A DNA stretch of 64,000 nucleotides from Escherichia coli. Lineage in GTDB: Bacteria > Pseudomonadota > Gammaproteobacteria > Enterobacterales > Enterobacteriaceae. The DNA lies in NCBI RefSeq assembly GCF_046105845.1, contig NZ_CP151004.1, one strand, 5' to 3'. Shown piece after piece: positions 1,579 to 43,909 of this stretch. Within the stretch, counting starts at the first letter, position 1. Each line of letters begins with the position of its first letter. The position numbers and the translations under genes were made by a program. Below the pieces are notes generated by a model. That model saw only the letters and a program-made list of their open reading frames with translations. It had not been told where the DNA came from and ran no database searches.

Positions 1579-1656
1579 GTAGGCCGGATAAGGCTTTTAC
1601 GCCGCATCCGGCAGCCGTTGCCTGATGCGACGCTCGCGCGTCTTATCAGGCCTACA
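1579..1656. repeat. Two REP (repetitive extragenic palindromic) units forming a BIME-like element in the infB-rbfA spacer
   Basis: gtaggccggataaggc...gccgcatccggca followed by gcctgatgcgacgc...gcgtcttatcaggcctaca; classic REP palindromes. Confidence 0.8.
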
Positions 1657-3121: not shown

Positions 3122-3487
<366 letters not shown>

Positions 3488-3499
3488 TTCTTGCGAGTT

Positions 3500-3715
3500 T
3501 CAGAAAAGGGGGCCTGAGTGGCCCCTTTTTTCAAGCTGACGGCAGCAATTCACTGGAAACTAATGTATTGTTGCTATGAATGATCTTCCGTTGCAGAGGT
3601 TCGCGCGGCTAATGAGAGGCTTTACCCACATTGGGCTGGGTTAGGGTTGTCATTAGTCGCGAGGATGCGCAGAAGATCGGGTATTAACACCAGTGCCGTA
3701 AGGTACTGTCTAAGA
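3500..3715 (-). ncRNA. sraG: Candidate antisense small RNA in the rpsO-pnp intergenic region (SraG/PsrO-like); boundaries approximate
   Basis: From memory, a small RNA is transcribed antisense to the pnp leader in this spacer. On the minus strand a TTACGA-N19-TAATAT promoter-like element lies near 3735-3765 and the rpsO hairpin could serve as terminator. Ends are not determined from sequence. Confidence 0.3.
3505..3532. terminator. rpsO intrinsic terminator (symmetrical hairpin, probably bidirectional)
   Basis: aaaagggggcc-tgagt-ggccccttttttc; A-run on one side and T-run on the other so it can terminate either strand. Confidence 0.85.
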
Positions 3716-40525: not shown

Positions 40526-41335
40526 ATGAGTAATACCGACGCTTCAGGTGAGAAGCGAATGACAGGCACCAGCGAGCGACGAGAACAGATCATTCAGCGT
40601 CTGCGACAGCAAGGGAGTGTGCAGGTTAACGATCTGTCGGCATTGTATGGCGTATCTACTGTGACGATCCGCAACGATCTGGCGTTTCTGGAAAAGCAGG
40701 GGATCGCTGTGCGTGCCTATGGCGGCGCGTTGATCTGCGATAGCACGACGCCGTCAGTCGAGCCATCAGTGGAAGATAAAAGCGCGCTGAACACCGCAAT
40801 GAAACGCAGCGTTGCGAAAGCTGCCGTTGAGTTGATTCAGCCAGGTCATCGGGTGATTCTCGATTCCGGGACCACCACTTTTGAGATTGCTCGTCTGATG
40901 CGCAAGCACACTGACGTAATTGCGATGACCAACGGTATGAACGTGGCTAATGCGTTGCTGGAAGCTGAAGGCGTTGAGCTGCTGATGACCGGGGGGCATT
41001 TGCGCCGTCAGTCGCAATCTTTTTACGGCGATCAGGCTGAGCAATCGCTGCAAAATTACCACTTCGATATGCTGTTTCTTGGTGTAGATGCGATCGATCT
41101 GGAGCGCGGCGTCAGTACGCATAATGAAGATGAAGCCCGTTTAAACCGCCGGATGTGCGAAGTTGCGGAACGGATCATCGTGGTCACCGATTCCAGTAAA
41201 TTCAATCGTTCCAGTTTACATAAGATCATTGATACTCAACGTATCGACATGATCATTGTTGATGAAGGCATTCCTGCGGATAGCCTGGAAGGGCTGCGAA
41301 AGGCTGGGGTTGAAGTGATTCTGGTCGGGGAGTGA
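40526..41335 (+). CDS. agaR: DeoR-family transcriptional repressor AgaR
   Basis: 269-aa ORF with N-terminal HTH ([23 protein letters not shown]) and DeoR C-terminal domain. Confidence 0.95.
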
Positions 41336-41389
41336 GAAAGTGTGCCCGCTGGTCAACACGAATGCGTTCGGCGGGCATTGTGAACACCA

Positions 41390-41854
41390 TCAATGGGGTT
41401 CTTCTGTCTCTCGGGTGAGGGTTTCCCAGTCGGCAGGAGGATGTCCTCTTTTTAACATTTTGCTGAATACGGTATAGGCATCTGTTTTTTTACCGTAGGT
41501 GCGCAGAGTGTTTTCATCGTTCATCCATCCCAGAATGATGACTTTCTCTTTTTCACTATAACGAAAGAAGAGACGATAACGACCAGCACCAAATTTTACC
41601 CGTGACCAGTCTTTATTTTTCCCAGAGCCTAACGACTTGCCATGACGGAATGCCGGTGATGATGGATTGACCGTGATATGCTCCTCAATCACTTTATGGA
41701 CTACCGCCAATAACTTTGTGGCGGCTTTTCTCTGATAATTTTCAGGATCTTTTCCCTTTAATGTCTCGACTTCGGCAACTAAAGCGTCGTAGGTTTCCTG
41801 AAAACAGGGATGAGCATATAGCGCCCAACCATTAACCCTTTGTGGAAAATCCAT
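41390..41854 (-). CDS. yhaV: Type II toxin YhaV (ribosome-dependent mRNA endoribonuclease, RelE/ParE superfamily)
   Basis: 154-aa ORF; gene order antitoxin then toxin; stop of prlF overlaps the yhaV start. Confidence 0.93.
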   Translation of the reverse strand: MDFPQRVNGWALYAHPCFQETYDALVAEVETLKGKDPENYQRKAATKLLAVVHKVIEEHITVNPSSPAFRHGKSLGSGKNKDWSRVKFGAGRYRLFFRYSEKEKVIILGWMNDENTLRTYGKKTDAYTVFSKMLKRGHPPADWETLTRETEEPH

Positions 41855-42189
41855 TATTCGTCGTCGCCAATCTCATCATCAATGTTGACGTCCATGCCAG
41901 CGACAAGTTTCTTTCCTTGTTGAATGTTGAATGGACGAGTTTTTTGCGGGTTGTTCTGGATATCTGCATCCAGAAAACGCAAAAATGCATTCATAGTATG
42001 ATCCTCCTGTTCATCTCCCAGTCGGCACATAAATACTTGCCCACCAGGCAGAATTTCGTAATGAATGCTGTCCTGGCCTGGCTTCAGTTTTAAGGCCTCA
42101 CGCACTGGCGCGGGGATAGTTGTTTGTCCGCGTATCGTGACCTTTGATTCAGTGGTCAGTACAGCGTGAGAGCGAGCATTAGCGGGCAT
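41854..42189 (-). CDS. prlF: Type II antitoxin PrlF/SohA (AbrB/SpoVT-type DNA-binding domain)
   Basis: 111-aa ORF MPANARSHAVLTTESKVTIRGQTTIPAPVREALKLKPGQD... with acidic C-terminus. Confidence 0.93.
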   Translation of the reverse strand: MPANARSHAVLTTESKVTIRGQTTIPAPVREALKLKPGQDSIHYEILPGGQVFMCRLGDEQEDHTMNAFLRFLDADIQNNPQKTRPFNIQQGKKLVAGMDVNIDDEIGDDE

Positions 42190-42245
42190 GATTCACTGTC
42201 CTTTTACAGCCTGTTTTCTGCTCAAATTATAAGCTTGAACTAAGG

Positions 42246-42270
42246 TAATGCAAATGCATTATTAATGTAC
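42246..42270. promoter_or_regulatory. Palindromic element upstream of prlF (candidate PrlF-YhaV autoregulatory operator)
   Basis: gtaatgcaaatgcattattaatgtac contains the self-complementary core aatgcatt, 57-81 nt upstream of the prlF ATG. Confidence 0.4.
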
Positions 42271-42283
42271 GTGGGGGCTTTAA

Positions 42284-42313
42284 ACAATAAAAACATGGCA
42301 CTAAGGCCATGTT
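42284..42313 (-). terminator. garD intrinsic terminator
   Basis: Minus strand: aacatggcc-ttagt-gccatgtt followed by tttttatt, 25 nt after the garD stop. Confidence 0.7.
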
Positions 42314-42337
42314 TTGCGAGGGACGTTCCAAAAGAAA

Positions 42338-43909
42338 TCAGGTCACCGGTGCCGGGTTAAACACCGCCAGCTGGTTATGCAGTCCCCATTGATCTGAGAA
42401 GGTTTTCTTCTTCCCGCTGGCGACGTCGAGAATAAAGTGGAACAACTTCCAGCCCACCTCTTCAATAGTTTCTTCGCCGGTAGCGATGGTGCCCGCATTA
42501 ATATCCATTAAATCAAACCAGCGGTTCGCCAGCTCGGTGCGGGTCGCCATTTTAATGACGGGTACCGCCATCAGGCCGTACGGCGTACCGCGACCGGTCG
42601 TAAACACTTGCACGGTAATCCCTGAAGCCACCTGTTGTGTGCCACAGACAAAATCACTGGCTGGCGTCGCGGCGTAAATTAATCCGCGTTTAGTCGGGCG
42701 TTGGCCGGGCGACAGCACTTCAACAATTGCACTTTTACCCGATTTAGCAATGGAGCCGAGCGCTTTCTCCACCACGTTTGCCAGACCGCCTTTCTTGTTG
42801 CCCGGCGAAGGGTTGGCGCTGCGGTCGGTTTTTCCCATATTGAGATAGTTATCGTACCACTCCATCTCCTCCAGCAGCCGTTTGCCGACCTCTTCGTTCA
42901 CTGCGCGTGGTGTCAGCAGATGGATCGCGTCACGCACTTCCGTGACTTCTGAAAACATCACCGTTGCGCCGCAGCGCACCAGTAGATCAGACGCATACCC
43001 AACCGCCGGGTTTGCCGTTACGCCAGAAAACGCATCGCTACCGCCGCACTGCATGCCGACAACCAGTTCTGAAGCCGGACAGGTTTCTCGCTGCCGTTGA
43101 TTCAGTTTGTGCAAATGGCGTTCGGCGACCTGCAAAATATCCTCGACCATGGACTGAAAACCGACATGCTTTTCATCCTGCAAACTGACAATGCTGGCGC
43201 TTTCTACTGGAATAGCTTGCACATCATCCGTTCCAGTCAGCAGGCGTTCAGGCTGCAACTTTTCACAACCCAGACCAATCACCATTACTTCGCCGCCAAA
43301 GTTAGGGTTCAGCGAAATATTGTGAATGGTACGAATAGGCACAACTGCCGCCGGTGCGTTAATCGCCACGCCACAACCGTACAAATGATTCAGCCCCACC
43401 ACGCCATCGACGTTCGGGTATTTCGGTAGCAGATCGCGTTCAATGATTTTTACTACATAGTCCACCACGCCTGCCACACAGTGGACGCTGGTGGTGATGC
43501 CGAGCAGGTTTTTGGTGCCCACGCTGCCATCGGCATTGCGATAGCCCTCAAAGGTGTATCCTTCCAGTGGCGGTAAGGGTGCCGGGACTTTGGTTGCCAG
43601 TGGCAGCGTGTGTAACGGTGGCGCTTCCGGTAGTACAACCATTGATTCGTCGATCCAGCTTCCGCGTGGGATTGCGCGCACGGCGTAACCAATCACTTCG
43701 CCATAACGAATAATTTCACCATTAGCCGGAATGTCCAGCAATGCGACTTTATGCCCCTGGGGAATATGTTCAATTAATTCCAGCCCATCCGGAAAACGCG
43801 TTCCTGCTTTCAGGCCATTATCATTAACAATAATTGCCACATTATCTGTGTCGTGAACTTTTATATAAAACGCAGTTGGCGTTTCTTGTCTGATTTCGAT
43901 GTTGGCCAT
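42338..43909 (-). CDS. garD: Galactarate dehydratase (L-threo-forming)
   Basis: 523-aa [30 protein letters not shown]... Confidence 0.95.

Follow-up and report, generated by a model that had tools for sequence, protein, structure and literature searches.

The 64,000-nucleotide stretch of Escherichia coli DNA analysed here (the window) carries the prlF-yhaV type II toxin-antitoxin module of E. coli as an intact allele. The module is published and already known, and its promoter contains a perfect 16-bp palindrome, TAATGCA-AA-TGCATTA at 42246-42261, which is proposed as the operator of PrlF or of the PrlF-YhaV complex. It is very likely that a chromosomal prlF-yhaV operon, autorepressed through binding of PrlF-YhaV to this palindrome, accounts for the locus as a whole. 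What decides the case for an operator is the conservation of the palindrome across homologues, and not its strength as a palindrome.

Identity and layout of the module

The open reading frames of the window place prlF (sohA), the gene of the antitoxin and autorepressor (111 aa), at 41854-42189 and yhaV, the gene of the toxin (154 aa), at 41390-41854, both on the minus strand. Base 41854 is common to the two genes, belonging as an A both to the prlF TAA stop codon and to the yhaV ATG, and the junction on the minus strand reads TAATG, a 1-nt overlap with the antitoxin gene first; homologous loci likewise have the antitoxin-first order. A promoter-like match at this junction (41882-41853, 9/12) was considered as a yhaV promoter and rejected, as its -10 and the yhaV start codon overlap. 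On one side lies agaR (40526-41335, plus strand), which encodes a 269-aa DeoR-type regulator named AgaR by NCBIfam, and on the other garD (42338-43909, minus strand), whose 523-aa dehydratase product NCBIfam names galactarate dehydratase GarD. The earlier note had described a 111-aa PrlF that precedes and overlaps a 154-aa YhaV, wedged between the aga and gar clusters, and both its coordinates and its placement agree with this layout. The garD-prlF spacer is 148 bp and the yhaV-agaR spacer 54 bp, the same lengths as tabulated for K-12 (PMC5120126). The latter, at 41336-41389 between convergent genes, contains a GC-rich hairpin (TGCCCGC...GCGGGCA) that lacks a clear U-tract, and its role as a terminator is weak or uncertain; it was not among the calls of the terminator scan and its fold z-scores reach only -1.3 and -1.8, for which reasons it was dropped as a clear terminator.

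The window locus is the same as E. coli K-12 prlF(sohA)-yhaV (b3129-b3130; Schmidt et al. 2007, J Mol Biol 372:894), with which it shares an identical PrlF, the agaR and garD neighbours, both spacer lengths and the promoter palindrome, the RefSeq record of MG1655 giving the gene order agaV, kbaZ, agaR / yhaV, prlF / garD, garP. The two differ only as alleles do, namely by T153P in YhaV, two synonymous or intergenic changes, and a T for G at 42268. Of 5426 complete E. coli genomes, 5167 contain the 1-kb prlF-yhaV region (90-100% identity), and all of these annotate the two genes as prlF and yhaV. Some E. coli genomes are without the module.

The gene identities given in the earlier note find agreement in Pfam, in the PrlF equivalog of NCBIfam and in the RefSeq annotation of K-12. 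PrlF, 100% identical to its MG1655 counterpart, matches PF15937 (PrlF_antitoxin) with 142.2 bits (cut-off 32, 6.2e-42) and the equivalog NF007429 with 170 bits (cut-off 125, 1.4e-50), and retains the DNA-binding loop T-x-R-G-Q-T-T-I-P. Residues 15-39 fall just under the cut-offs of PF04014 (MazE; 19.5 against 24.7 bits) and TIGR01439 (27.1 against 28.3), and archaeal AbrB-domain proteins were among the loci retrieved with the PrlF N-terminus; PrlF has been described as AbrB-like (PMC7781912). YhaV covers 137 of the 138 profile positions of PF11663 (Toxin_YhaV) with 181.9 bits (cut-off 35, 7.8e-54) and is identical to the MG1655 protein at 153 of 154 positions. The NCBIfam search gave no match for YhaV, although the RefSeq product name is nevertheless YhaV. 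Residues invariant in 15 YhaV homologues include W83, R85, K87, R94, R98, R118 and D125, all of which are kept in the window copy, and two conserved arginines of YhaV, probed by mutation, have been reported as required for activity (PMC5408214). The protein belongs to the RelE superfamily and cleaves mRNA on the ribosome (PMC7781912); it is toxic, and PrlF neutralises this toxicity (PMC7781912, PMC5408214).

A 16-bp dyad in the prlF promoter

The repeat finder resolves the palindrome as a 7+2+7 inverted repeat with arms TAATGCA at 42246-42252 and TGCATTA at 42255-42261, a 2-nt gap, a dyad axis between 42253 and 42254 and a conserved core AATGCA-NN-TGCATT. The earlier note had pointed to a 26-nt string, gtaatgcaaatgcattattaatgtac, at 42245-42270 and, within it, to the self-complementary core AATGCATT at 42253-42260 as the possible autoregulatory operator. 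The location holds, but the symmetric unit does not: the 16-bp dyad, which is larger than AATGCATT and centred 3 bp from it, is what is conserved in place of the 8-nt core. The AATGCATT 8-mer is present in E. coli because the central two bases are AA/TT, and among homologues the central dinucleotide may be AA, TT, AT, AG, TC or CT; copies with a central AT, AG, TC or CT lose the 8-mer and keep the 16-bp dyad, so that AATGCATT is ruled out as the functional core. The internal TGCA self-palindromes are likewise ruled out as the unit, since a second class of homologues (class II, described below) has arms (GGAA/TTCC) that are not self-symmetric and yet keeps the dyad. Taken together, the asymmetry of the class II arms and the variability of the central dinucleotide leave the 16-bp dyad as the relevant symmetry.

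The GTAC end of gtaatgcaaatgcattattaatgtac hinges on the T at 42268, a minority allele where K-12 has G; the exact 65-mer with this T occurs in 147 complete genomes. The same polymorphic base falls within a degenerate extra half-site, TaCATTA (TcCATTA in K-12), on the minus strand at 42263-42269, 1 nt upstream of the palindrome and with one mismatch to the right arm TGCATTA. Its spacing departs from the 18-bp period at which tandem operators recur on plasmids, and it is doubtful that it has a function.

The exact pattern of 14 specified bases occurs once in the window, and a single inverted repeat of the intergenic region exceeds the palindrome in length, the intrinsic terminator hairpin of garD (42290-42315, minus strand), called by the terminator scan, with a 10-bp stem, a U-tract and a folding energy of -12.4 kcal/mol (z = -3.97; 0 of 200 shuffles equally stable). 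This terminator marks the upstream bound of the prlF promoter region. Taken alone, the palindrome is statistically within chance: dinucleotide shuffling of the 96-nt promoter segment yields a perfect inverted repeat (arms 7 nt or longer, gap 6 nt or shorter) in 5.7% of cases, and the density of such repeats, averaged over the window, is 0.075 per 96 nt.

Conservation within the enterobacteria and across the PrlF family

Thirteen promoters were aligned, comprising seven E. coli alleles from across the identity range, Escherichia sp. E1V33, E. albertii, the divergent E. coli E69, an Escherichia copy in a second context, Pseudocitrobacter and an Enterobacter species. Only two blocks are invariant in all thirteen, ATGCA-n-TTGCATTA in the palindrome and TATAATT at the -10, and the polymorphisms fall within the stretch separating the palindrome from the garD terminator, within the spacer that joins -35 and -10, or close to the start codon. 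The 30-mer at 42238-42267 is 100% identical across 4979 E. coli genomes.

Searching genome contigs with E. coli PrlF returned 13 loci, exact peptide seeds missing Salmonella and Klebsiella. Two of the loci, from MAGs of Deinococcota and Rhizobium, encode PrlF proteins of 35% and 30% identity, respectively, followed by a YhaV homologue of 45-47% identity, and in each a perfect TAATGCA-NN-TGCATTA stands 25-26 nt ahead of the start codon. A tblastn search of plasmids with the Rhizobium PrlF yielded 318 records, from which 18 taxonomically spread loci were taken. The module is mobile, with homologues on plasmids and in varied genetic contexts. When 22 non-Escherichia PrlF loci, picked by protein similarity alone, were searched over 250 nt upstream for the palindrome with at most two mismatches, it was present ahead of prlF in 17, and these palindrome-bearing loci span cyanobacterial, Deinococcota, alpha-, beta- and gammaproteobacterial copies (the Synechocystis plasmid copy with two mismatches). 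The 22 matches all fall in the 5.5 kb of upstream sequence, where uniform chance predicts 0.018; the remaining 49.9 kb of these loci contains none. In a reverse test, 240 metagenome and viral loci were retrieved by the exact motif only; nine contained a PrlF-like gene, which in all nine begins 29-64 nt from the motif, and the 231 without such a gene correspond to the chance background expected of a 14-base pattern at this collection size. Chance matches thus make up most of the motif-selected sample, and its support for the association comes from the nine positives. Scanning viral contigs with the profile brought up no relative of PrlF.

The phylogenetic breadth of this association bears on the proposal that a host regulator other than PrlF, such as a global or envelope-stress factor like CpxR, binds the palindrome. 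Palindromes are generic transcription factor sites, and prlF has been reported to be repressed by CpxR (PMC9600279). However, the motif accompanies prlF-yhaV, whether plasmid-borne or chromosomal, in phyla that are unrelated and have no host regulators in common, and it is unlike the CpxR box GTAAA-N5-GTAAA; CpxR-like pentamer repeats are found instead at 42192-42218. An operator of the module's own product is hence favoured here, and a host regulator site is extremely improbable.

Architecture of the proposed operator and covariation with the PrlF loop

When the homologous promoters are anchored on the palindrome, most read TTGACA-N3-[YAATGCA-NN-TGCATTA], with a -10 composed of the last TA of the palindrome and four further bases (TACCTA, TACTAT, TACCAT). 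As read from these alignments, the operator in most homologues fills the promoter spacer and enters the -10, which is the classic position of a repressor acting by occlusion. Several plasmid copies carry tandem operators with an 18-bp period, three in Citrobacter and two each on an E. coli IncF plasmid, in Pantoea and in Fukatsuia. Four loci, in Thioalkalivibrio, Novosphingobium, Acetobacter and Thalassospira, have in place of the common motif a second palindrome, TAAGGAA-NN-TTCCTTA, of equal length, gap and register.

The two palindromes are matched by two forms of the PrlF loop. Class I, which includes E. coli with R20, combines the loop T-x-R-[G/Y/S/A]-Q-T-T-[I/V/L]-P with AATGCA-NN-TGCATT, and class II, made up of the four loci above, combines T-[A/S]-K-G-Q-x-T-[I/L]-P-K with TAAGGAA-NN-TTCCTTA. 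The replacement of Arg by Lys in the loop (R20), together with a Lys after the loop proline (A27 in E. coli), occurs in exactly the four class II proteins. An orphan PrlF on a Klebsiella plasmid, without yhaV, has the loop deleted and is preceded by no palindrome. Such covariation of loop and motif is what a protein-operator pair would predict.

The covariation also weighs on a structural reading, in which the palindrome would be an RNA or DNA structure (hairpin or cruciform) or a recombination or mobility site at the edge of a cassette. Mobility of the module, as attested by homologues on 318 plasmids, by the differing contexts and by those E. coli genomes that are without it, would be compatible with such a site. 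However, with 2 nt between the arms an RNA hairpin could not close a stable loop, transcription is predicted to start downstream of the motif, and the fixed -35/-10 register, the tandem 18-bp repeats in promoters and the loop covariation all fit a protein operator, so that a structural or mobility element has next to no probability beside binding by PrlF.

The predicted promoter of the module and its proposed rewiring in the E. coli clade

Within the region, the highest-scoring sigma-70 match (10/12) consists of TTTGCA at 42249-42254, inside the palindrome, a 17-nt spacer and TATAAT at 42226-42231, all on the minus strand, and from this match to consensus we infer the prlF-yhaV promoter. A Shine-Dalgarno-like AAGGA at 42199-42203, 9 nt upstream of the prlF ATG on the same strand, is read as the putative ribosome-binding site. 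A weaker alternative -10, TACCTT, is possible where the distant homologues have theirs. The TTGACA 3 bases upstream of the palindrome is missing from E. coli, Pseudocitrobacter and the Enterobacter species, which have GTACAT or GTCCAT there; in these three, a perfect TATAAT follows at 17 nt beyond the TTTGCA or TTGCAT in the right half of the palindrome. Palindrome and start codon are 56-57 nt apart in E. coli and Pseudocitrobacter, 66 nt in the Enterobacter species and 25-44 nt in most other homologues. These differences suggest that the E. coli clade kept the operator while the promoter moved, such that the repressor in the window would cover the -35.

It is possible to view the palindrome as mere promoter sequence, a -35 within an AT-rich context, with the PrlF operator located elsewhere, for example in the -10 or 5'UTR. 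To this view speak the position of TTTGCA, the best -35 candidate, within the palindrome, the occurrence of the palindrome alone within chance, and the conservation of the -10 and 5'UTR in Escherichia as well. However, in distant homologues the 16-mer comes after a TTGACA that is distinct from it and occupies the spacer and -10; with the 16-mer thus at differing promoter positions, its conservation is independent of a -35 role. Further, the palindrome covaries with the DNA-binding loop of PrlF, and neither the homologue alignment nor the enterobacterial one contains another element shared family-wide. A promoter-only explanation is therefore highly unlikely, and the palindrome is taken in what follows as the operator.

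The palindrome and the published operator

A 'conserved sequence' in the promoter was reportedly described by Schmidt and colleagues in 2007, and this wording suggests that at least a part of the family-wide picture had already been noticed. The 16-bp palindrome is very probably the published operator, because it is the only sizeable palindrome of the promoter (the garD terminator aside), because it is conserved in the family and because of the wording of the review literature. Given this assignment, the DNA fragment of the 2007 study should contain TAATGCATTTGCATTA. In a full-text search in both orientations, the 16-mer was printed in no searchable paper; the Reg-Seq preprint has prlF and yhaV in its gene table only, and a PNAS 2025 amplification paper does not mention the operator.

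A model of autorepression

The available data allow a model of the locus to be assembled. Transcription would most likely start from the sigma-70 promoter formed by TTTGCA and TATAAT, yielding a single mRNA for prlF and yhaV whose translation is probably coupled through the TAATG overlap. PrlF, as an antitoxin of the AbrB/MazE type, would dimerise through its N-terminal domain and neutralise YhaV through its acidic C-terminal part. The PrlF-YhaV complex, as taken from the literature, may then bind TAATGCA-NN-TGCATTA at 42246-42261. The complex has been reported as a PrlF2-YhaV4 hexamer that pairs up on DNA, and it has been reported, in a summary of Schmidt et al. (2007), to bind a promoter sequence and repress transcription (PMC7781912); PrlF controls its own operon (PMC5408214), the prlF1 allele loses DNA binding and thereby derepresses prlF (PMC7781912), and the toxin may serve as co-repressor (PMC8138530). 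As the palindrome covers the predicted -35, a bound complex would exclude RNA polymerase and so autorepress the operon. Loss of PrlF, for example by proteolysis (Lon being named in the literature), would be expected both to derepress the promoter and to leave YhaV free for mRNA cleavage.

Relation to known systems and implications

Several well-studied modules resemble prlF-yhaV in part. The E. coli mazEF system combines an antitoxin of the AbrB/MazE swapped-hairpin type, a type also ascribed to PrlF, with toxin-enhanced autorepression via palindromic promoter DNA (PMC5408214); in contrast, PrlF matches the MazE Pfam model only below its cut-off, MazF is a toxin of another fold that acts independently of the ribosome, and the mazEF operator is an 'alternating palindrome' spread over two promoters. 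E. coli relBE shares with prlF-yhaV a ribosome-dependent mRNA endonuclease of the RelE superfamily, an antitoxin-first gene order and autorepression by the complex (PMC7781912), whereas RelB is a ribbon-helix-helix protein, and conditional cooperativity has been shown for relBE but is not known for prlF-yhaV. A review groups vapBC and fitAB with prlF-yhaV as systems in which the toxin is needed for stronger operator binding (PMC8138530), but their toxins are PIN-domain proteins of unrelated fold and their operators are different.

The comparison across the family goes further than the locus itself. In the picture that it suggests, modules only 30-45% identical in their proteins, from Proteobacteria, Cyanobacteria and Deinococcota, would be accompanied by the dyad AATGCA-NN-TGCATT, and the enterobacterial chromosomal clade would have lost the ancestral TTGACA and gained a new promoter in which the operator lies on the -35 and not on the spacer and -10. 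Cross-phylum conservation of the operator, two operator classes covarying with the loop, and the enterobacterial promoter rewiring were all absent from the literature searched. That deep operator conservation, an Arg/Lys recognition code, tandem operators and promoter rewiring are jointly both correct and undescribed is put forward tentatively, as somewhat short of an even prospect.

For the window, the locus is a textbook toxin-antitoxin module, whose annotation is confirmed and whose operator coordinates are sharpened to 42246-42261. The family comparison has a modest wider value in that it provides a precise and testable operator consensus and a candidate specificity determinant, the Arg/Lys position in the T-x-R-G-Q-T-T-I-P loop, and it also points to rewiring of the promoter around a fixed operator. 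A PDB sequence search returned no PrlF or YhaV sequence and no sequence relative of YhaV, and with the PDB holding no structure of the system, the consensus and the candidate determinant could serve to guide EMSA and structural work on how PrlF and its relatives recognise their operators.

Genomic context and alleles of prlF-yhaV

Gathering-level Rfam matches scored across the window comprise RNase P RNA (rnpB, 48599-48975, plus strand), the SraG sRNA (3504-3675, minus strand), the ribosomal S15 leader (3160-3274, plus strand) and naRNA4 (1582-1652, plus strand), while no tRNA gene was found in the window; this set is consistent with the E. coli chromosomal segment running from rpsO-pnp to rnpB. 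Over 1002 positions, the window and MG1655 disagree at 5. TaCATTA, a degenerate half-site situated 1 nt upstream of the operator, includes one of these, 42268, where the window has T and MG1655 has G; the exact 65-mer carrying this T is common to 147 complete genomes. Another difference, at 41398, results in the substitution T153P close to the C-terminus of YhaV. The agaR and yhaV genes converge on a 54-bp spacer (41336-41389) that holds a GC-rich hairpin, TGCCCGC...GCGGGCA, with a U-tract on neither strand. With fold z-scores of just -1.3 and -1.8, this hairpin is not convincing as an intrinsic terminator.

Possession of the module is not universal, as about 259 of 5426 complete genomes gave no match to it. 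E. coli EC23HZZ201 (locus 1788-2564) is devoid of both prlF-yhaV and the entire aga cluster, and there an IS1A element, beside yraI/yraJ, directly adjoins the final 64 bp of the intergenic region on the garD side. A 750-bp contig of Escherichia sp. MOD1-EC7003 carries a prlF copy with the E. coli-type operator, -10 element and 5'UTR; the DNA upstream of its palindrome is wholly unlike that of the window and the garD terminator is absent, and the module therefore occupies a second genomic context within Escherichia. On a Klebsiella pneumoniae IncQ1/IncU plasmid, an orphan “PrlF family antitoxin” (608-1000) flanked by a HicA toxin gene on one side and a RelE/ParE-Phd pair on the other is extended at its N-terminus and has its R-G-Q-T-T loop deleted; it is accompanied by neither yhaV nor an upstream operator, and is probably a decayed copy.

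Proposed operators and a candidate DNA-recognition code of PrlF

Whereas the E. coli chromosome has one palindrome upstream of prlF, several plasmid copies have tandem operators, three on a Citrobacter plasmid and two each on an E. coli IncF-type plasmid and in the Pantoea and Fukatsuia copies, with a start-to-start period of exactly 18 bp. This arrangement may be connected to the dimer of hexamers that is reported to form on DNA. In the Citrobacter and IncF-type plasmids the operators precede the annotated start of prlF by 180-220 nt, as opposed to 25-90 nt elsewhere, which implies that the leader is long, that the start is mis-annotated or that a small gene in between has escaped annotation. 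CpxR has been reported to repress prlF (PMC9600279), and the prlF 5'UTR contains three minus-strand pentamers, GAAAA-N6-GTAAA-N6-GTGAA (42192-42218), which overlap the ribosome-binding site and resemble CpxR half-sites, but whose 11-bp spacing is other than the canonical N5.

Neither PrlF nor YhaV has a sequence relative among solved PDB chains, the sole match, the designed “ThreeFoil”, being at chance level, and the PDB holds no structure of the PrlF2-YhaV4 complex or of the way it recognises DNA. A second palindrome class, GTAAGGAA-NN-TTCCTTAC, lies upstream of prlF at four loci (L265, about 647-662, L267, L270 and L273), which come from Thioalkalivibrio, Novosphingobium, Acetobacter and Thalassospira, with the geometry and promoter register of the first. 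It was seen only where the PrlF DNA-binding loop T-x-R-G-Q-T-T-I-P has K for R, plus P-K. This pairing of loop residue and operator class provides a candidate DNA-recognition code for PrlF.
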